Part shown: one piece after another, positions 2,291 through 9,142 of the stretch | How positions within the stretch are numbered: the first letter of the stretch is position 1 | Layout of the letters: the number at the start of each line of letters is the position of its first letter | Virus record (IMG/VR): IMGVR_UViG_2778261313_000003 | Location: 1-9,379 of that record | From: a virus | Taxonomy: Duplodnaviria; Heunggongvirae; Uroviricota; Caudoviricetes | Direction: 5' to 3' (one strand) | DNA length: 9,379 nt | Notes under the pieces: generated by a model | The model's database searches: none | Told to the model about the DNA's origin: nothing | What the model saw: the letters and a program-made list of their open reading frames with translations, nothing else | Position numbers and translations under genes: made by a program

Positions 2291-2643
2291 TACGCCTCCG
2301 ATGTAACAGTCGTTATTCCATAAAGAGTGTCGATTTCAGCGGAAAACATGACACGTCGGGTCGTGGTATCCACCGTCGTATTGAAAGAGAGGATTGATTT
2401 AACGCCCTGCGTTTCGAGGATGCGCTTACGGATCGCCAGGTTGTAGGTTTCCGGCTTCTGCTTACCGAGTACGGACTGGATCCACGGAGTCCCCTCGGTG
2501 GTGTCGAGAAACCATTGCCCATACCACAATTCGAATCGAGTTTTTACCGCCTGCGCCACGGCCTCCGGTGAGTTAATCAGCCAAGTGTCATCACCGCTGC
2601 CAAAGGTGTAATCGCCATCGGCGTCTTCACGTCTGTATCGCAT
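2290..2643 (-). CDS. small baseplate protein at the gpW/gp25 position (Mu gp46-like)
   Basis: 117-aa ORF whose ATG overlaps the stop of the V-like gene and whose stop overlaps the ATG of the J-like gene. Call is by synteny; no lysozyme-like motif was verified. Confidence 0.5.
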   Translation of the reverse strand: MRYRREDADGDYTFGSGDDTWLINSPEAVAQAVKTRFELWYGQWFLDTTEGTPWIQSVLGKQKPETYNLAIRKRILETQGVKSILSFNTTVDTTTRRVMFSAEIDTLYGITTVTSEA

Positions 2644-3395
2644 CAGTTTACTCCGTCGGTATTGCTTCCACCGCGCTGAACACCACCATGAGTGTGCGTA
2701 TCATCGATTGGCTTGCCGTTAGCCTTCACGCTACCCAAAAACTCAACAGCACCAGTGATTTTTGAAGCCACACCAGAAACAACAGACCCCACCATGCCTC
2801 CCATCCAGGTTAACAGGCCATGAATGGTTACTTTCTCAGAAAAATCAGCCAGAGGGGCAACCACATCAAGGCCCCCCGGAGCGACAATTTTAATTTTCCT
2901 GGTATCAGGATTAAGCTCAAAATAGGTGCTGCCGTCATCACTACGCAACTGTGTGGCACTGGTATTAATACCGCTAATCTTCCTTGCCTGCGACTGGGGA
3001 CCGACAATACAAAACGCATCCGATAAATCATGCATTCTGTCATCGACCGGCTCCTGTATCCCGCCACTCTGCCACCAGAAATCAATACAACGATCGGCAA
3101 AAATCACCAAACATTCATCACCGGCTTTAACTGGAAACGTTAGCGTACAGCCTCCGCCACGCGGGAATACCACTGGCACATCCACCAGCAATGGGTAATT
3201 TTTGGTAATGCGGTTGCCGTCGTTATCAATTTCAACGTAACGGATAGCAGGCTGTACAACCGCCGTCACCGCATCAGGAGCGAATGACTGAACAATGCCA
3301 GGCAAGGCGACACGGATCTGGTTCTTTGTTGTTTCCCGTTCAGATTTAAATGTTTCGGCAAGGTCGCCGCTGCGGGTCTGGTCAGATACTGCCAT
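2643..3395 (-). CDS. baseplate central spike / assembly protein V-like
   Basis: 250-aa ORF. The N-terminal half contains ...PLLVDVPVVFPRGGG...GDECLVIFADRCIDFWW...RMHDLSDAFCIVG, a pattern I recognise from spike N-terminal (gp138-N / Mu gp45-type) domains. RBS GGAG sits 8 nt upstream of the ATG at 3393..3395. Confidence 0.6.
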   Translation of the reverse strand: MAVSDQTRSGDLAETFKSERETTKNQIRVALPGIVQSFAPDAVTAVVQPAIRYVEIDNDGNRITKNYPLLVDVPVVFPRGGGCTLTFPVKAGDECLVIFADRCIDFWWQSGGIQEPVDDRMHDLSDAFCIVGPQSQARKISGINTSATQLRSDDGSTYFELNPDTRKIKIVAPGGLDVVAPLADFSEKVTIHGLLTWMGGMVGSVVSGVASKITGAVEFLGSVKANGKPIDDTHTHGGVQRGGSNTDGVN

Positions 3396-3411
3396 TTAGT
3401 AGGCTCCAGAA

Positions 3412-3440
3412 AGCAAAAAACCCTCCAAGTGGCGGGTTTG
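3412..3440 (-). terminator. putative rho-independent terminator downstream of the HEPN-like gene
   Basis: Minus-strand RNA would read CCCGCC-ACUU-GGAGGG (five G-C pairs with one internal G/A mismatch, extendable by flanking A-U pairs) followed by UUUUUU. It lies between the stop of the 142-aa gene (3460) and the RBS of the V-like gene (3404..3407). Confidence 0.45.
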
Positions 3441-3459
3441 AATTTTGAGAAATTTCAGC

Positions 3460-3888
3460 TTATGCAGTTAACGAGTCATCACCAATCTTCAGTAATTGAT
3501 TAACGATTGCATCGACCTCTTCCGCATCCAGAATTACACTTCTCGCGGTAATCCGGTTGATTTTCCGCTCAAGCTTGTAATCAGAATTAACACGTTGGGC
3601 ATGCGTCATTTTCAGTTTAACGCCGATTTTCTTTACTGCGTTAACATCAACATCGTTAAGTGCAGCTGCCTCACCACTACAAAAGGCCGTATAGACTCGC
3701 ATGTGAACTCCACCTTTTAGTTTTTCACCATCTTGTGTAGCGGTCGGTACCAGATTGTTGGTGATCCGTAAGACGGAATGGTACATACCATAGTATGCTC
3801 GGCTAATAGCATTTCTCGTCCACATCTCACCGTTTAGAGCCAGGGAATGCTTAGCCAATTCAAGAAAACAGGTATGCTCAACCGACAT
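3460..3888 (-). CDS. HEPN-like domain protein (UPF0332-type), candidate RNase toxin/effector
   Basis: 142-aa ORF with ordered motifs as in classical HEPN/UPF0332 proteins: SRAYYGMYH (res 29-37, Arg30-x6-His37), KGGVHMRVYTAF (58-69), QRVNSDY (98-104) and an acidic C-terminal helix DAEEVDAIVNQLL. The ATG shares one nucleotide with the stop of the upstream 243-aa gene (TAATG). Assignment is from motif recall, not an HMM score. Confidence 0.5.
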   Translation of the reverse strand: MSVEHTCFLELAKHSLALNGEMWTRNAISRAYYGMYHSVLRITNNLVPTATQDGEKLKGGVHMRVYTAFCSGEAAALNDVDVNAVKKIGVKLKMTHAQRVNSDYKLERKINRITARSVILDAEEVDAIVNQLLKIGDDSLTA

Positions 3889-4619
3889 TAGAGTTCCCCG
3901 GCTTCAAAGCATCCGACGCATTCTGAATCCGCAAGCCCCGCAATAATAATCTCATCAGCCAAGGCATTATTCATCTGCGAAAGAAGCACTGGATCGTCTG
4001 TTTTGACTTCAACGAACAGCGTATCAAGTTCTGACATTACATAAAAAGCATGAGCGCCAGCAAGACGAGCGCGGTACTTTTCTGCAACGTTCATCATGAG
4101 CCGCCCAATAGTTTTTAGCTCCTGAGCATGATCTTTTTGGGTATGCAGATAATTGAGCGTGTCATACCATTTGCCCATATCTTCAGGGCGCGGTACTTCC
4201 ATTGCAGTTAGCATCGGCATCACCTTTTCAAGCAAATCGATATCAACCCAGTATGCAGAAATTGTAGCAACCTCAGCCAATATCGTTGGATTAAGTGAAT
4301 CAGATGCTTTCTGAATCATCACATACTGGCGAGCATGCAAACCTAAGTTACGCAGCGCAATCGTATAGTTACAAAAAGAAACTGGATCGTTAGGCGCTAT
4401 TCTCAACCCCCGCTCACAGAGTGAACATCCTTCATCTATTTCACCAAGAACAAGCTTAGCTAAGCCTTCAATTGATAGCCCCTGATAACGTTCAGGTAGT
4501 TTCTTCGCTTCACGAATGATTCGATGGATTTCAAACTCACTCAGAAGGTTTTCACCCTTAGTTAATGAAGGAGTCAGAAGATCTAACAGTTCTCCTGATT
4601 TTGGCTGCGCTAAACTCAT
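3888..4619 (-). CDS. hypothetical protein, first gene of the two-gene cassette (possible antitoxin/sensor partner)
   Basis: 243-aa ORF, start ATG at 4617..4619 preceded by AGGA about 11 nt upstream. Predicted mostly helical with two CxxC motifs (C65-S-L-C68 and C234-V-G-C237). No Walker A and no nucleotidyltransferase G[SG]...DxD motif was seen. By eye the gene is roughly 40-45% GC against roughly 50-60% in flanking tail genes. Confidence 0.6.
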   Translation of the reverse strand: MSLAQPKSGELLDLLTPSLTKGENLLSEFEIHRIIREAKKLPERYQGLSIEGLAKLVLGEIDEGCSLCERGLRIAPNDPVSFCNYTIALRNLGLHARQYVMIQKASDSLNPTILAEVATISAYWVDIDLLEKVMPMLTAMEVPRPEDMGKWYDTLNYLHTQKDHAQELKTIGRLMMNVAEKYRARLAGAHAFYVMSELDTLFVEVKTDDPVLLSQMNNALADEIIIAGLADSECVGCFEAGEL

Positions 4620-4768
4620 GTTTTAGTTATTCCTGGCTTTAATGAAGTAGCATATCGATGGCAATCCACCATCAAAAAGTCAGTGCAGTGTAATCGCTCG
4701 TCTCAAAAAACAACAGTTTTTAGAGCACATTTTGTTGTTTTTCAGGCGTTACGAATTTCAGGTTACCT
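4620..4768 (-). promoter_or_regulatory. intergenic leader of the cassette with a weak sigma70-like promoter candidate
   Basis: 149-bp non-coding gap upstream of the 243-aa gene. On the minus strand the best candidate is TTGATG (plus 4670..4675) and TATGCT (plus 4649..4654) with a 15-nt spacer, which is suboptimal. No strong consensus promoter was found. Confidence 0.25.
4705..4742. repeat. AT-rich inverted repeat (10-11 bp arms, about 17-nt spacer)
   Basis: AAAAAACAACA at 4705..4715 is the exact reverse complement of TGTTGTTTTT(T) at 4733..4742. It lies in the gap between the secreted-protein gene and the cassette. Confidence 0.5.
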
Positions 4769-5110
4769 TCACCCAGCCACTTTTTTACAAGGGAAAGATC
4801 CGATGATTTTCGGCGCATCCATGCTGTTCTGCAGAAGCTGGACATTCAGGAATCGCGTTTCGGTACCAGGGCGACGAATGTATTCAAAGCCGTAGTTGTT
4901 ACCGTCTTTGGCAGGCATAAGCCCCATGTCTACTTTCAAACCATTGGTACCCAGTTCGGTGATTTTTTGAGAGGTAACTCTTTCACCGTTGATAGTCGAT
5001 AACTCGCCCTGGTTTGCAACCATAGTGTAGCCACCGCATTTAACCGTGAAGCCATCCGCCCACGCGCTGCACGCAGAAAAGACAGCTAACAGAAAAATAA
5101 TACCCCTCAT
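4769..5110 (-). CDS. small secreted protein or lipoprotein of unknown function
   Basis: 113-aa ORF with an N-terminal signal peptide (MRGIIFLLAVFSACSAWA; possible lipobox FSAC or signal peptidase I site AWA/DG) and two Cys in the mature part. RBS AGGGGA sits 6 nt upstream of the ATG, which lies 3 nt after the hub gene stop. Confidence 0.6.
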   Translation of the reverse strand: MRGIIFLLAVFSACSAWADGFTVKCGGYTMVANQGELSTINGERVTSQKITELGTNGLKVDMGLMPAKDGNNYGFEYIRRPGTETRFLNVQLLQNSMDAPKIIGSFPCKKVAG

Positions 5111-5113
5111 TGC

Positions 5114-6175
5114 TCATCCCCTTTGCAAAGCCGATCGCGTATACAGATCCGCCGCGCCACGCGCTTCGCACATCATATCCATGTACCACGCCTGGCCCCT
5201 TGTGTCGCCAGTGTACATAATCCCGCGCACAATATAAACGCCATCCGTTGCGATGCTGGCAGGCTGCGATGTGGTGCCGCTTAGCGTGATATTTCCATCC
5301 GTGTTCTGGTCGGTGATCTGACCACCAGCCATCGCAATATCGTTGTTCGACAAGGCGGTACGATACACGGAAGCCTGATCCAGCTGAATAAGTCCGTTAA
5401 CCCGGATGTTCGGATTAATAAGCGCGCGGACGTTTACGCCGTTACCGATAGTCTGCTGCGGCATGCCAATAAGCCCGGTAGCGCTGTTGAGCACAATCGC
5501 TTCATGAACATATTCGTTATTCGCCACCATCTGGCGCTGACCGTCCACGAATTGCCATGTTGCGCCACATTGCCCGGCTACGTTATCCATTAGATGCCGC
5601 GTCATGCCAAAGAGTACCCGCCCCCGGGGGAATACAGTAGCAGGCATTTCAGGCGTCAGGCCTTCGGTCGCGCCTTTGGCTTCGAAGTCTTTCATCAGCG
5701 CACGGTTTACATCAGCGACCGTGTAACCGGCAGCCAGCGTCTGTGAGGTTATACTGGTGGCAAAAGCCAGATCAGTATCTGCTGCCTGAATCAGGACGTA
5801 GGAATCAACCGGACTGTCTTTTCCTGTGACCGAGTAGCGAATTTCACCGCTGAAAATCAGTCCGTAGTTGCGGCCATCACTCTGACCCACGTCCGCCGCG
5901 TCAACTTCCCGCACGGTCCCGACGTCGCTTGCCGACACCTCCGGCGCGATACCGTCGTAACCGGCAATCAGACGCACTTTCGAAAACTCCTGCCCGGTGA
6001 TTCGGTTCACAGTATCTGCCGAGAGGTTATAAATTTTGATAGTCCCTACCCGGGACGCGCTGCTGATGTTGAACCAGTCGATCGTAAAGGTGACTTTAAA
6101 ATCACTTAGCTCAATTCCCTGACCGTTCCCGTCCACAAGCTGCAGCTCGAAATGTCTCATCCAGTTCTGTGACAT
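5114..6175 (-). CDS. putative baseplate hub protein (P2 gpD / Mu gp44 / XkdQ-like)
   Basis: 353-aa ORF with RBS GGAG 5 nt upstream of the ATG. Size, position after the tape measure and small tail genes, and a C-terminal ...DGVYIVRGIMYTGDTRGQAWY... segment resemble hub proteins of simple contractile tails. Identity is inferred. Confidence 0.45.
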   Translation of the reverse strand: MSQNWMRHFELQLVDGNGQGIELSDFKVTFTIDWFNISSASRVGTIKIYNLSADTVNRITGQEFSKVRLIAGYDGIAPEVSASDVGTVREVDAADVGQSDGRNYGLIFSGEIRYSVTGKDSPVDSYVLIQAADTDLAFATSITSQTLAAGYTVADVNRALMKDFEAKGATEGLTPEMPATVFPRGRVLFGMTRHLMDNVAGQCGATWQFVDGQRQMVANNEYVHEAIVLNSATGLIGMPQQTIGNGVNVRALINPNIRVNGLIQLDQASVYRTALSNNDIAMAGGQITDQNTDGNITLSGTTSQPASIATDGVYIVRGIMYTGDTRGQAWYMDMMCEARGAADLYTRSALQRG

Positions 6176-6480: not shown

Positions 6481-7067
6481 TAGCCGCCCCCCAGTAATGA
6501 CGCCACGTTACCCGTGATGCTTTTCAGCAGTGAAGTATCTGGAGGTTTTGTGGTTTTGTTGCCGCTGTTCTGTACCGCCGACGTGCTGGCCCCTTCCTTC
6601 ATGTTGGTTTTATCCGCGACGGTAATCTGCTGTGTCCGGGAGATAATGACCTCCCTCAGGGTGAGGACGGCGGACAGGACGTTTTCGGTTGTCTTGTCCG
6701 TCGTCACTTCCAGCGCCCGGATCAACATGTTGCTGTACAGCCGTTTACCGGTTACCACATCGAAGGGGATACGGCTTTCCTGCAGATCCAGTAGCTCCTG
6801 ATACGTCTGCTGAGGACTCAGGCCGAGCAGGCTGGTAGCCGTCAGGTTACTGGCAAAATCCAGCAATGCGCCGCCACCGGCGAAACCAACCTCCATCACC
6901 ACTTCTGACGGTTTTTTATAGGCATGATCAGCGACAGCGGCCCCGACCTCTACCGGATGCTCTGTTATTTCAAGCATATCTGTATGCTTCTCTGAAATAA
7001 CAACACTGGGAACAATCATTCCTATTTTTCTGCTCTGCTGATGAAAAAGTGTAGAGAGAATATCCAC
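6480..7067 (-). CDS. phage tail protein (unassigned family), probable GTG start
   Basis: 195-aa ORF. Codon 1 is GTG (plus 7065..7067), overlapping the tape measure TAG stop and preceded by GAGGGTGGGG. The first internal ATG (codon 17) has no good RBS. Confidence 0.5.
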   Translation of the reverse strand: MDILSTLFHQQSRKIGMIVPSVVISEKHTDMLEITEHPVEVGAAVADHAYKKPSEVVMEVGFAGGGALLDFASNLTATSLLGLSPQQTYQELLDLQESRIPFDVVTGKRLYSNMLIRALEVTTDKTTENVLSAVLTLREVIISRTQQITVADKTNMKEGASTSAVQNSGNKTTKPPDTSLLKSITGNVASLLGGG

Positions 7068-9052
7068 TACCCCACCCTCACCTGATTACTTCGCATGACC
7101 TGAGCATTTGCAGACTGTTGCCGACGTGCAACCTCATTACCGACAGCGTGCGGATCTCCGCCACCGTAAATATGGTAGGTATTTTGCTGGTTAACCTCTG
7201 TCACTTTGCCACTAATTCCCGCCACGGCAGCCTTATTAATCAGCTCTCGAGAATAGATATTTCTTCCATTCTCATGCTGGATAATGCTGCTCATCAATGC
7301 TGACATGGTTTGCGGATCGCTCATATTCAGGGCAGCCCGGGGATCCACTCCCAGTCGTTGCGATACAGCCCTGATATACGCGGTTGTGTTGTTATTATCA
7401 GACGCAGGTGCCCAGGTAGAGATAATTTTCTCCACACTGTTTATTCCCCGTCCGGCGTACAGCATTAACTGACGAGCAAGAGCCCGTAATCCATCAAAAG
7501 CGGTTTCAAATCTGGCAAATCGCCCGCCCGGTCGTTCAAGAGAAGCCCCCGCCTGACCAGCAAAATTAAGGTTTCCCGGATTGTTATTCCGTTCTCCTCG
7601 CTTCGTAGCCTGTGCATGTTGTTCCGGCTCAGCACCTGGAATATCTGACTGAATATTTGCGCCTTTTACGGTATGAGGATTACGACCAAAATCGGTATCA
7701 ATGCCAAGCCAGCGCAATGAATCTCCAATATTTTGTTTCGTGTAATCCCAGGATGACTTCGCACTGGCACCAATATTTTCGCGATCGGAGTACAAATAAG
7801 CAGCATAAGCCATCCAGCCTTTTAACCATGGCGGTACCGGCAAACCAGATATTTTCCCGAAAGCCCCCAGAACCCTGGATACCCAAACACCCGCGATGAA
7901 TGTACCGAGGATTTCCAGTGCATTTTGCCAGCCGCCAACACCATCTTTTAGTTCCAGAAGGTGATCACGAAGCCAGGTGATCGCATCCTTCGCTTTATCT
8001 ATTGCCGGTTGCCATTTTTCCCAGTCGATAAGACTGTTACCGCCTTCTTTCCATGTTTTGTAGTCTTCCCACAAGAGACCGAGAGCCACGATCAGACCGG
8101 TAATCAGCCCTATAGGTGACATCCAGAAAGTAGAGTTAAGTATCCGCATGGCGACAACCAGACCGCCGATAACCTCTATCAGGGTTTTCGTTTCGGCATC
8201 CAGTTTCCCCCACCACTCGATGATATCTCCGACACCATCGACTATCCGAAATGCTACCCGCCCGACTATCTCACCCAGCCAGAGGATCCCCTTTATGACC
8301 TTTGTGATGGTGACTTCAATTTTGGGAAAATTTTCAATTATCTTTTTGCGCAGGTTATCAATCTGCCCCGCCAGTCCGTCCGCAAGATTCGATCCGATTT
8401 TGTCCCGCGCCATCCCGGCCATTTCACCGAGCGATTTCAGCGAGGTCATAAACCGGTTTGACGATAAGGCAGCCTGATCGGCATTAAATCCGATCGCTTT
8501 CACCATTTCTGAATACTGAGCGCTGAACTGCCCCACTCCGCGACGCATAGCCATCAGGGTATTTTCGTCAATGCCCAGCATCTGCGCATACTGGTTAGCC
8601 CGGTAATACGGCATGCTGCTGAGTTTCTGTCCAACGCCCGTAAAGATAGCAGCCATGTCACGCATGTTACCGCGGGCATCACGGGTCTGTACGCCCAGGC
8701 GATTCAGAAAGCCTTCTGCTCCGGGATTGTTACGAATAAACCGGGAGAGGCTTTCCAGAGAAGATCGCGCAGCGTCCACACTGCCGCCAACCTGCGAAAC
8801 CGCATAGCCAATAGACTGAATTCCCTGGACCGTCGCGCCGGTGCGCTGTGACGCCCAGTAAAGATTATCCAGGCCGGAGGCGATCTTAGCCGTGAAGGCC
8901 ACCACGGACAGCGCAGCTCCTTCAACAGCCAGCCCCATTTTGATGACATTTGCAGTTGTACCGGCGAGGACAGAACCGAACTTTTTCGCTCCTGCATCAT
9001 CCACACTGAAGCCAAGCGAGACGAGGAAATCTTTAATAGTTTCAGCGTTCAT
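7067..9052 (-). CDS. phage tail tape measure protein
   Basis: Long ORF (661 aa from the ATG at 9050..9052, which has GGAG 8 nt upstream; the track's TTG start at 9073 adds 7 codons). Helical, Ala/Gly-rich N-terminal half, a central hydrophobic stretch (LIEVIGGLVVAMRILNSTFWMSPIGLITGLIVALGLLW) and a C-terminal segment containing NNPGNL ... WAP ... HENG. It sits at the head of the baseplate gene block. Confidence 0.75.
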   Translation of the reverse strand: MNAETIKDFLVSLGFSVDDAGAKKFGSVLAGTTANVIKMGLAVEGAALSVVAFTAKIASGLDNLYWASQRTGATVQGIQSIGYAVSQVGGSVDAARSSLESLSRFIRNNPGAEGFLNRLGVQTRDARGNMRDMAAIFTGVGQKLSSMPYYRANQYAQMLGIDENTLMAMRRGVGQFSAQYSEMVKAIGFNADQAALSSNRFMTSLKSLGEMAGMARDKIGSNLADGLAGQIDNLRKKIIENFPKIEVTITKVIKGILWLGEIVGRVAFRIVDGVGDIIEWWGKLDAETKTLIEVIGGLVVAMRILNSTFWMSPIGLITGLIVALGLLWEDYKTWKEGGNSLIDWEKWQPAIDKAKDAITWLRDHLLELKDGVGGWQNALEILGTFIAGVWVSRVLGAFGKISGLPVPPWLKGWMAYAAYLYSDRENIGASAKSSWDYTKQNIGDSLRWLGIDTDFGRNPHTVKGANIQSDIPGAEPEQHAQATKRGERNNNPGNLNFAGQAGASLERPGGRFARFETAFDGLRALARQLMLYAGRGINSVEKIISTWAPASDNNNTTAYIRAVSQRLGVDPRAALNMSDPQTMSALMSSIIQHENGRNIYSRELINKAAVAGISGKVTEVNQQNTYHIYGGGDPHAVGNEVARRQQSANAQVMRSNQVRVG

Positions 9053-9142
9053 TATCCTCTCTCCATTTCTCAATGCGCCGCTGGTTATCCGCTTTTACCG
9101 CCAGATGGTCATTCAAGAGAGCAATGTCATACAAATCGACAG
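9042..9142 (-). pseudogene. 3' remnant of the gene upstream of the tape measure gene, severed by the IS insertion (possibly tail assembly chaperone)
   Basis: Only one minus-strand frame is open from the IS boundary (9142) to a TGA at 9042..9044 (VDLYDIALLNDHLAVKADNQRRIEKWREDNER*), ending 11 nt inside the tape measure gene. The other two frames stop within 5 to 10 codons. The frame has no start codon in the window. Confidence 0.3.

Follow-up and report, generated by a model that had tools for sequence, protein, structure and literature searches.

We describe a two-gene cassette from a prophage tail operon of Escherichia coli, the smaller product of which, 142 aa in length, is almost certainly a divergent HEPN domain, both in fold and in type (AF0298-like HEPN-T; UPF0332/COG2250/PF05168). 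With little doubt, the HEPN gene and the gene of its TPR partner together constitute an obligate, mobile two-gene cassette, which probably belongs to the mobile accessory units ("morons") carried by temperate phages. The overall interpretation, that the pair serves as a cassette of TA-like or abortive-infection type whose HEPN effector is non-canonical and operates by the mechanism proposed below, stands at about an even chance. Few effectors are as common as HEPN nucleases in bacterial immunity and TA systems. A literature search found no demonstrated activity for the large UPF0332/AF0298-like branch of this superfamily that lacks the catalytic His. The cassette offers a tractable E. coli example of that branch, having sharply defined invariant polar residues to mutate and a partner that differs from the MNT enzyme expected there.

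The window, by which we mean the whole stretch of 9,379 nucleotides analysed, carries the HEPN gene on its minus strand at 3460..3888 (stop codon included), within the tail operon of the E. coli prophage. A first-pass annotation of the same DNA had placed a 142-aa ORF at these positions, and both the coordinates and the size were confirmed, the strand being minus. The sequence strings it quoted all occur in the translation of 3460-3888, in the order claimed: SRAYYGMYH (residues 29-37), KGGVHMRVYTAF (58-69), R99-VNS-D103-Y104, and DAEEVD (121-126). Among 24 homologues with 57-89% identity, a length of 137-142 aa is kept in almost all. The protein matches phrog_5176 (E 2.9e-45), and a search with the family profile retrieved 1027 cluster representatives at E <= 0.001; two loci, from Citrobacter and Pseudocitrobacter, were obtained in a related-locus search of genome contigs with an alignment profile. 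Because the family is conserved, a chance ORF was rejected, and judged by this conservation 3460-3888 is a genuine coding gene. Residue conservation is given throughout for 142 representatives of clusters formed at 50% identity, which share 22-46% identity with the window protein.

Direct scans of the HEPN protein and its partner against Pfam, NCBIfam and PADLOC yielded no usable family match, and the HEPN assignment is therefore drawn from structure and from relatives. An HMM search against Pfam, one of the checks proposed when the protein was first called HEPN/UPF0332-type, failed for the window protein itself, which matched 0 families at E <= 1 and did not reach the gathering threshold of PF05168; nor did any NCBIfam model match among 142 proteins (the window protein and 141 relatives). 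Another of them, structural comparison, was clearly passed: the AF2 monomer model (pLDDT 89.7, pTM 0.84) retrieved HEPN structures as all of its best seven Foldseek matches in the PDB, placing the protein in the HEPN superfamily at the level of fold. The narrower assignment is supported by profile matches. A wide family profile searched against PDB sequences matched AF0298 (2hsb) over its full length at E 1.5e-6, the close-family profile reaching only E 0.033 with the same entry, and PF05168 was matched by 45 of the 142 relatives at E <= 0.01 (best 1.5e-10); some homologues bear the COG-based JGI name "UPF0332 family". The closest solved relatives by sequence profile are the "HEPN domain-containing proteins" 9xbd and 9xbc (125-131 aa; E ~1e-12, closest 1.3e-12), which share with the window protein a SRAYYAMF- segment, a His in the insert and an RNRSDY-type segment, but differ in having Tyr in place of H37 and, in 9xbc, Phe at the Tyr equivalent to Y104. 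A literature search for these two entries, the RefSeq accessions and the PHROG identifiers found nothing relevant.

Conservation among the relatives outlines a putative site composed of three segments. At the start of helix 2, E21-M-W-T-R25 (3814..3828, minus strand) forms an Ex3[KR] motif, with E21 kept in 141 of 142 and R25 in all 142; the motif is the one defined for HEPN helix 2 (PMC3710099), and E21-x3-R25 thus supplies the second acidic feature associated with catalytic-type HEPN domains. The insert between helices 2 and 3 contains a GGxH segment (3703..3714, minus strand), the His of which, H62 (141/142), is aligned to the His of "SKTH" in AF0298, GGvH being matched to SKTH in the profile search of PDB sequences. 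The third segment, R99-V-N-S-D103-Y104 (3577..3594, minus strand), lies at the end of helix 3 (residues 82-104 in the model), where the Rx4-6H motif of HEPN proteins is located (PMC3710099); R99, D103 and Y104 are each present in 142 of 142, and the segment (R..ADY in the profile) aligns with REESDY of 2hsb and RNRSDY of 9xbd. None of the 142 relatives has a His in the Rx4-6H position at the end of helix 3, although the Arg is invariant, and the canonical motif of catalytic-type HEPN domains is accordingly missing here. Together with R30 and H37, these residues (E21, R25, R30, H37, H62, R99, D103 and Y104) are each kept in 138-142 of 142 relatives.

A different pair had been nominated as catalytic in the first-pass annotation, which took Arg30 and His37 for the Rx4-6H residues of a classical HEPN RNase toxin. 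The R-x6-H spacing is indeed present in S29-R-A-Y-Y-G-M-Y-H37 (3778..3804, minus strand), and it is far from a chance occurrence, since R30 and H37 are each kept in 138 of 142 diverse relatives (Y32 in 141 and Y33 in 140); being seven residues apart on one helix, the two should also share a face of it, as helix geometry and the model suggest. Both, however, are located on helix 2, which spans residues 21-40 in the model, and helical periodicity would set them roughly opposite E21 and R25. Furthermore, where SRAYYxxYH aligns with STAYYAMFH of AF0298, the closest structure, that protein has Thr at the position of R30, and 9xbd has Tyr at that of H37. On the alignments and model, the R30-x6-H37 pair is a family-specific feature and not the canonical Rx4-6H site, and a catalytic role of the kind first proposed appears improbable. 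Even if the cassette does nothing, this corrects an easy mis-annotation, in which a conserved R-x6-H spacing is mistaken for the HEPN motif.

In the first-pass annotation the order and spacing of the segments had been likened to those of UPF0332 proteins, and the alignments with AF0298 (SRAYYxxYH with STAYYAMFH, GGvH with SKTH, R..ADY with REESDY) bear this out. The acidic C-terminal helix cited with them is present as DAEEVD but is not a family-wide trait, positions 121 and 123 being variable. AF0298-like HEPN-T proteins are described as having lost the motif His, with an alternative His contributed by the insert between helices 2 and 3 and an Ex3[KR] in helix 2, and it has been proposed that they remain RNases (PMC3710099). 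The window family shows the same arrangement, with D103 (142/142) in place of the motif His and H62 (141/142) in the insert. AbiV of Lactococcus, which has proven anti-phage activity, was grouped with AF0298-like HEPN-T proteins in the same survey because both lack the motif His and have the alternative His in common (PMC3710099); its structural similarity to the window protein is weak (Foldseek 9bj7_X, E 3.2), and it is distinguished by a length of ~200 aa and by having no TPR partner.

The second gene of the cassette lies immediately upstream on the minus strand (3888..4619) and encodes a 243-aa protein. Helices at residues 7-160 in its model form a TPR-like repeat region (4140..4601), residues 58-111 aligning to the consensus TPR; the following residues, ~162-243 (3891..4136), are modelled as a helix plus beta-beta-alpha-beta domain. 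The partner's stop codon overlaps the HEPN start by one base in TAATG (3886..3890, minus strand), an arrangement that couples their translation, and overlaps of -1, -4 or -10 nt recur in related loci. In two rounds of profile searching the partner was found immediately upstream in 76 of 80 HEPN matches, two of the exceptions being cut by a contig end or a fragment, and in loci seeded with the partner the HEPN gene was downstream in 33 of 33. The pair also occurs in metagenome and genome contigs, with upstream genes of 246-270 aa. Pairwise identities of the HEPN and partner proteins are correlated at r = 0.96, a value reached in 0 of 2000 Mantel permutations, and divergence is faster in the partner (10-100% identity, as compared with 22-100% for HEPN). 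The cassette therefore shows the general feature of TA modules, two adjacent, co-transcribed genes that share their inheritance and are transferred between replicons.

The first-pass annotation had also placed the HEPN gene in the toxin position of a two-gene module. It is the downstream member of a coupled pair, and the slot it occupies elsewhere holds a partner and YafO-toxin pair, but the 243-aa TPR protein is neither an MNT enzyme nor a DNA-binding antitoxin. Larger than the "toxin", and with no match to HTH, RHH or AbrB domains, the TPR and alpha/beta partner is unlike a classical type II antitoxin, which is small and bears a DNA-binding domain. It likewise has no Pfam match to MNT or any other NTase and no match to a TPR-unrelated fold. 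This bears on the possibility that the pair is a canonical MNT-HEPN (HepT/MntA, type VII) system, in which the nucleotidyltransferase AMPylates a Tyr beside the motif. COG2250 and PF05168, the closest families, are normally paired with MNT (PMC2701414), Tyr104 is invariant after the Arg, and the related PDB entry 9xbc is a Tyr-to-Phe variant. However, a nucleotidyltransferase gene adjoins the HEPN gene neither in this prophage nor in any related locus that was inspected; the partner has TPR repeats instead, and R99-x4-Y104, having no His, does not make up the RX4HXY motif. For want of an MNT gene this explanation was rejected, and we regard it as scarcely credible. HepT has the canonical RX4HXY and is neutralised through AMPylation by the MNT enzyme (PMC7641770, PMC13000451); the window pair, with no motif His and no MNT, differs on both counts from the type VII systems SO_3166/SO_3165 (5yep) and Aphanizomenon HEPN/MNT (7ae2). 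Members of the AF0298-like family itself come mainly from archaea or thermophiles and have MNT nucleotidyltransferases as partners (PMC2701414), whereas the HEPN-TPR pair belongs to phages of mesophilic enterobacteria and Vibrio.

The setting of the cassette marks it as exchangeable cargo. It measures 1.16 kb, and an intact copy was found in 33 of 5426 complete E. coli genomes. In this prophage it fills a variable slot flanked by the baseplate hub/113-aa gene on one side and the spike gene on the other, where other E. coli strains have a 190-aa and YafO-toxin pair, DUF4282, or DUF2335. Its GC content is 41-46%, as compared with 50-57% in the flanks. Beyond this myovirus hub-spike slot the pair neighbours genes for terminase, tape measure, major tail, portal and major head, sheath, integrase, Ant, and RT with PAPS reductase. 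A role as a structural component of the tail was rejected because of these many non-tail positions and because the cassette is missing from most related prophages. Between the HEPN stop and the ribosome-binding site of the spike gene, minimum free energy and centroid folds both predict a terminator-like hairpin (AAACCCGCC-ACTT-GGAGGGTTT) followed by a U run (3415..3439, minus strand). With a perfect stem in all alternative-cargo variants, the hairpin belongs to the shared boundary of the slot. A strict terminator scan did not call it, and the folding z-scores of the two intergenic regions were unremarkable (-0.03 and -0.59), so that what supports a terminator here is the shape of the hairpin and its conservation among the cargo variants. 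Upstream of the pair, a cargo-specific region of 149 nt (4620..4768, minus strand) contains an A/U-rich hairpin with a U run. Promoter scanning of the minus strand detected none for the pair and no consensus sigma-70 promoter in this region, and alignment of the upstream regions of diverged alleles revealed no common -35/-10 element. The cassette could consequently be expressed only with the late tail genes and not in the lysogen. Of the features of a moron, then, the polymorphic slot, the dip in GC and a terminator-like hairpin belonging to the slot boundary were observed, and a promoter was not found.

The occupancy of this slot also informs an alternative in which the pair is a plain addiction (post-segregational killing) TA module that stabilises the prophage or propagates itself, with no anti-phage role and with the TPR partner as a proteolytically unstable antitoxin. 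The overlapping, co-diverging two-gene architecture would suit such a module, as would the YafO-family toxin module in the identical slot of other strains; relatives on mobile elements have integrase, RelE/HTH and ParA genes as neighbours, and the initial prediction for COG2250 HEPN proteins was that they are components of TA systems (PMC2701414). Against it, a 243-aa TPR protein with no DNA-binding domain is atypical of antitoxins, the usual role of TPR arrays in bacterial immunity is that of a sensor (PMC9122126), and the faster divergence of the partner fits an arms race, though antitoxins evolve rapidly as well. We consider simple addiction unlikely.

A similarly unlikely alternative is that the HEPN protein is a non-catalytic adaptor binding nucleotide, RNA or protein, the pair then serving the phage in regulation or counter-defence. 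The canonical Rx4-6H His is missing, nucleotide binding, not RNA cleavage, is the activity of classical PF05168-type domains such as those in sacsin and at the C-terminus of nucleotidyltransferases (PMC3710099), and non-catalytic action is also allowed for AF0298-like domains in the same work; moreover, expression may be late and restricted to the lytic phase, no promoter having been found, and several copies lie within structural operons. Retention of eight polar residues in nearly every relative, on the other hand, more closely resembles an active site than a scaffold, although it could also define a ligand pocket, and strict coupling to the partner gene is reminiscent of toxin control, as is the interchange of the slot with a YafO toxin module.

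We favour the interpretation in which the HEPN protein acts as effector and is most likely a metal-independent RNase, or failing that a toxin that binds RNA. Its non-canonical polar site would be assembled from R99, the Arg of the classical motif, with the alternative His62 of the insert and E21-x3-R25, and R30, H37, D103 and Y104 would be additional family-invariant residues. The conserved C-terminal domain of the partner is envisaged to restrain the effector, while the faster-evolving TPR region would sense a trigger, for example a protein from an incoming phage; once released or activated, the effector would halt translation, thereby aborting the infection or killing cells from which the prophage is lost. 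The parts of this scheme differ in strength. A toxin/effector-plus-regulator logic for the pair is somewhat better than evenly supported, whereas abortive infection directed specifically against phage falls somewhat short of even. More tentative still is the most detailed version, that the pair is a widespread, previously undescribed prophage-borne abortive-infection system, in which a TPR sensor controls a HEPN nuclease through a small, previously unrecognised C-terminal domain, the nuclease having a non-canonical site of R99, H62 and E21/R25 with R30, H37 and Y104 as extra catalytic or substrate-binding residues. A defence function against phage, if true, would extend the known defences of prophages to a TPR-plus-HEPN architecture and reveal how the "alternative" HEPN site works; abortive infection would be the first function for the AF0298-like "His-less" HEPN-T branch outside MNT pairs. 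The partner's C-terminal domain may also exist as a stand-alone protein: at one locus a 99-aa protein encoded upstream of the HEPN gene aligns to positions 166-236 of the partner profile (E 7e-7; 17 bits).

Prophage-encoded HEPN proteins that act in abortive infection have precedents in HepS (PMC13043305) and Tha (PMC11087260). HepS, from the Gifsy-1 prophage, and Tha, from S. aureus prophages, are accessory proteins of temperate phages, as is the window protein, and both stay inactive until an infecting phage supplies the proteins that trigger them (PMC13043305; PMC11087260). HepS, however, works alone and has a canonical R100-x4-H105, no partner gene being conserved beside its homologues, whereas the window HEPN protein has an obligate partner and a non-canonical site. 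RnlA/RnlB and LsoA/LsoB provide anti-phage abortive infection in E. coli, but RnlA and LsoA are large multidomain proteins with the canonical motif and their antitoxins are unrelated to TPR (PMC8266594); no sequence relationship of either system to the window pair was detected. PADLOC-DB 2.0 has no specific model for either protein: the HEPN protein matched only the generic HEPN_IX (E 0.0036), which 30 of the 142 relatives also match weakly, a few matching PDC-M05B, and the partner had no significant match (E 0.037 to PDC-M71B). WP_000110002 and WP_000050470 were not found in the portions of the DefensePredictor supplement that were searched. That study does describe DS-28, consisting of a 163-aa "HEPN family nuclease" and a second hypothetical protein; since its HEPN name is derived from an NCBI family and none of the 142 proteins matches NCBIfam (0/142), DS-28 appears to be a different system from the window pair.

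The 142-aa ORF at 3460-3888 on the minus strand (RefSeq WP_000110002.1, hypothetical protein) is a real gene, as judged by the retained length of its homologues (137-142 aa in almost all of 24 sharing 57-89% identity), its membership in phrog_5176 (function unknown), and the 1027 representatives of clusters at 50% identity that a profile of its close family retrieved at E <= 0.001. The motif strings quoted for this ORF in a first-pass annotation all occur in it, in the order stated, and the HEPN/UPF0332-type identity proposed from them was borne out by structure and profile searches. An AlphaFold2 model built from 21 sequences (pLDDT 89.7, pTM 0.84) has a HEPN fold; its top seven Foldseek matches were all HEPN structures, with weak E-values (0.026 or more). 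Against PDB sequences the close-family profile matched solely 2hsb (AF0298; E 0.033). A profile of 142 diverse relatives matched 2hsb over its full length (E 1.5e-6) and two recent entries termed "HEPN domain-containing protein", 9xbd and 9xbc, at approximately 1e-12; among those relatives, 45 matched Pfam HEPN family PF05168 (best E 1.5e-10). Of the checks that the annotation had named, Foldseek comparison with HEPN structures thus succeeded and a Pfam match of the protein itself was not obtained: it hit no Pfam family at E <= 1 and no NCBIfam model, and a PADLOC scan returned the generic HEPN_IX model alone (E 0.0036). From the structural model, the sequence profiles and the PF05168 matches among relatives, we place the protein, as a divergent member, in the AF0298-like "HEPN-T" branch of the HEPN superfamily. 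The label "HEPN/UPF0332 protein" (several homologues are called "UPF0332 family" by JGI) is therefore accurate without being new: the fold family, its His-less variant included, was described in 2013 (PMC3710099). One 243-aa database protein combines FAD/NAD oxidoreductase Pfam domains with 65% of the HEPN sequence at 89% identity; encoded on a contig of 2.1 kb, it is probably a chimera created by assembly or gene calling.

The model comprises helices at residues 6-17 and 21-40, an insert at 41-76, and helices at 82-104 and 112-138, onto which the AF0298-like variant of the HEPN motifs could be mapped. In HEPN proteins the canonical Rx4-6H motif falls where helix 3 ends, and a second acidic residue, in helix 2, usually takes the form Ex3[KR] (Anantharaman et al. 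2013; PMC3710099); here the Ex3R motif is E21-x3-R25. In AF0298-like HEPN-T proteins and AbiV, the motif His is typically missing, with D instead, and an insert between helices 2 and 3 supplies an alternative, strongly conserved His (PMC3710099). This alternative is H62, part of the KGGVH string singled out in the annotation, and aligns with the His of "SKTH" in AF0298; the canonical motif position is R99-V-N-S-D103-Y104, aligning with REESDY in AF0298 and RNRSDY in 9xbd. The annotation had instead matched R30 and H37 to the R-x4-6-H spacing of HEPN RNases. Their R-x6-H spacing is real and conserved yet lacks homology to the catalytic motif of HEPN proteins, since both residues lie in helix 2, AF0298 has Thr in place of R30, and 9xbd has Tyr in place of H37; motif mapping clearly corrects the catalytic residues proposed. 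An alignment of 142 sequences (the window protein and 141 cluster representatives 22-46% identical to it) revealed unusually many invariant polar residues: R25, R99, D103 and Y104 are kept in all 142, E21, Y32 and H62 in 141, Y33 in 140, and S29 in 128, with a basic residue (K, H or R) at position 96 in 136. Because R30 and H37 are each kept in 138, conservation of the R-x6-H pair is not noise; by helical periodicity the two would share one helix face, roughly opposite that of E21/R25. The "acidic C-terminal helix" also noted earlier is not conserved across the 142 sequences. We infer that the protein may be a latent RNase or RNA-binding toxin, with a putative site formed by R99, H62 and E21/R25, possibly also including R30, H37, D103 and Y104; a main rival explanation assigns it a non-catalytic binding role. 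Among solved structures the closest relatives by sequence, 9xbd_A and 9xbc_A, differ at the equivalent of Y104 (RNRSDY versus RNRSDF), which suggests that the depositors regard this Tyr as functionally important; a literature search for the two entries found no describing paper.

Directly upstream on the same strand, at 3888-4619, lies a gene encoding a 243-aa partner (phrog_22649), whose TAA stop overlaps the HEPN ATG in the sequence TAATG. In the partner model (pLDDT 90.1), residues 7 to about 160 form helical repeats, of which the family profile aligns 58-111 to the TPR consensus; a long helix and then a beta-beta-alpha-beta unit occupy 162-240. Pairing of the two genes is essentially obligate. 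After two profile rounds, a partner homologue was found immediately upstream, overlapping or abutting the HEPN gene, for 76 of 80 HEPN hits (75 viral contigs found via the HEPN family, together with annotated phage and E. coli loci); these homologues are 243-290 aa in length, and two of the exceptions are either truncated at a contig end or fragmentary. Reciprocally, searches seeded with the partner found the HEPN gene downstream in 33/33 loci. Six of seven distant relatives looked up in metagenome or genome contigs have an upstream gene of 225-270 aa, and the partner profile matched two of the three upstream proteins scored. The two proteins also diverge together: over 48 distinct pairs their pairwise identities correlate at r = 0.96 (no value as high in 2000 Mantel permutations), the partner diverging faster (10-100% identity, versus 22-100% for the HEPN protein). 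At the seventh distant relative (L086, 2701-3393), only a 99-aa protein precedes the HEPN gene, and it aligns to partner profile positions 166-236 alone (E 7e-7, 17 bits). This single locus points to the C-terminal domain as the HEPN-associated core, with the TPR array as an added module, and L086 may represent a minimal form of the module lacking that array. The HEPN gene of L086 has a weak PF05168 match, and the mobile element also carries an integrase, a RelE/HTH pair and a ParA-like gene.

In other settings, mostly thermophiles, COG2250 HEPN proteins are known as partners of minimal nucleotidyltransferases (MNT; PMC2701414). The canonical MNT-HEPN reading was excluded here: no nucleotidyltransferase gene adjoins the HEPN gene in the window or in the related loci examined, and the upstream gene encodes the TPR protein. 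In the libraries and literature searched, the phage-borne, obligate pairing of this HEPN-T branch with a TPR plus small-domain partner appears to be undescribed. The mechanism we propose would have the partner's C-terminal domain neutralise the HEPN protein and the TPR array sense a trigger, the outcome being abortive infection or addiction; a second main rival regards the pair as purely an addiction module. Analogies are offered by RnlAB and LsoAB, in which HEPN effectors are held by protein partners, and by the prophage HEPN abortive-infection proteins HepS and Tha, although HepS, with its canonical R100-x4-H105 motif and lack of a partner, is thus analogous rather than related.

The pair occurs in many genomic settings among temperate phages. 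Related myoviruses carry it in the hub-spike slot that it fills in the window, with alleles down to 27% identity. Of three annotated phages, Klebsiella phage Chronis has it in a stretch of unannotated genes upstream of its lysis genes, and a P2-like Vibrio phage has it flanked by a late-control B/Ogr-like gene and gene A; in Klebsiella phage ST405-OXA48phi1.3 the tail tape measure gene lies downstream of it. Elsewhere its neighbours include terminase, tape measure, major tail, portal and major head, and sheath genes, as well as integrase, Ant antirepressor, and reverse transcriptase plus PAPS reductase genes. The pair thus behaves like a mobile accessory cassette rather than a tail component. 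It is compact and a good candidate defence or toxin-antitoxin system in E. coli; the remaining main rival is a phage-offensive function. One viral contig (L047) holds two diverged copies about 3 kb apart (3238-4432 and 7168-8314), separated by an Ant-type antirepressor gene. Another locus (L095; 1734-3684, 4544-5311) has a distant copy beside genes for DUF4145, another HEPN family, and Endonuclease_NS, a neighbourhood that looks like a defence island.

Every tail or baseplate gene of the window's run lies on the minus strand: tape measure (7067-9073), two small baseplate proteins, a 353-aa hub-like protein (5114-6175), the spike (2643-3395; PF18352 N-terminal domain and GpV apex motif), sheath initiator and Baseplate J. 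Chromosomal prophages of E. coli strains, among them WAT, A16, MS 119-7 and DEC5E, match the window at 99.9% identity, that of WAT adjoining the tor operon. The cassette has a GC content of 41-46%, versus 50-57% in its flanks. Related spike/hub sequence occurs in 353 complete E. coli genomes and the cassette in only 32-33, where it is intact, single-copy and chromosomal in every carrier. In other strains the site between the spike gene and a 113-aa gene carries a 190-aa protein with a YafO-family toxin, DUF4282, DUF2335, or a diverged allele of the pair; across related E. coli prophages it is a hotspot for cargo (cargo at 2342-3332 in L082, 2355-2594 in L083, 2354-2926 in L084 and 2360-3513 in L085). 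In every slot variant, these four included, a GC-rich, terminator-like hairpin followed by a U run separates the cargo from the spike ribosome-binding site; in the window it lies at 3415-3439 (minus strand; AACCCGCC-loop-GGCGGGTTTTTT), directly upstream of that site, with a single G.A mismatch in a stem that is perfect in the other variants, and its loop is TTCG in one variant versus ACCC. Such an element within a tail operon implies that the baseplate genes downstream depend on read-through or antitermination. Sequence upstream of the cargo is cargo-specific. A search of 4620-4768, upstream of the pair, found no sigma-70 promoter; directly after the 113-aa gene this interval holds an A/U-rich hairpin with a U run (minus strand; AAAAACAACA...TGTTGTTTTTT), which is kept among alleles of 89-100% identity and is followed by no consensus promoter.

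The 113-aa ORF itself (4769-5110, minus strand; phrog_3443, function unknown) directly follows the hub gene and is kept in all slot variants; its position is taken by a 102-aa gene in related locus L130 and a 154-aa gene in L129. At its N-terminus is a signal peptide bearing a lipobox-like LAVFSAC (MRGIIFLLAVFSACSAWADG); the product is a possible secreted protein or lipoprotein within the tail operon.
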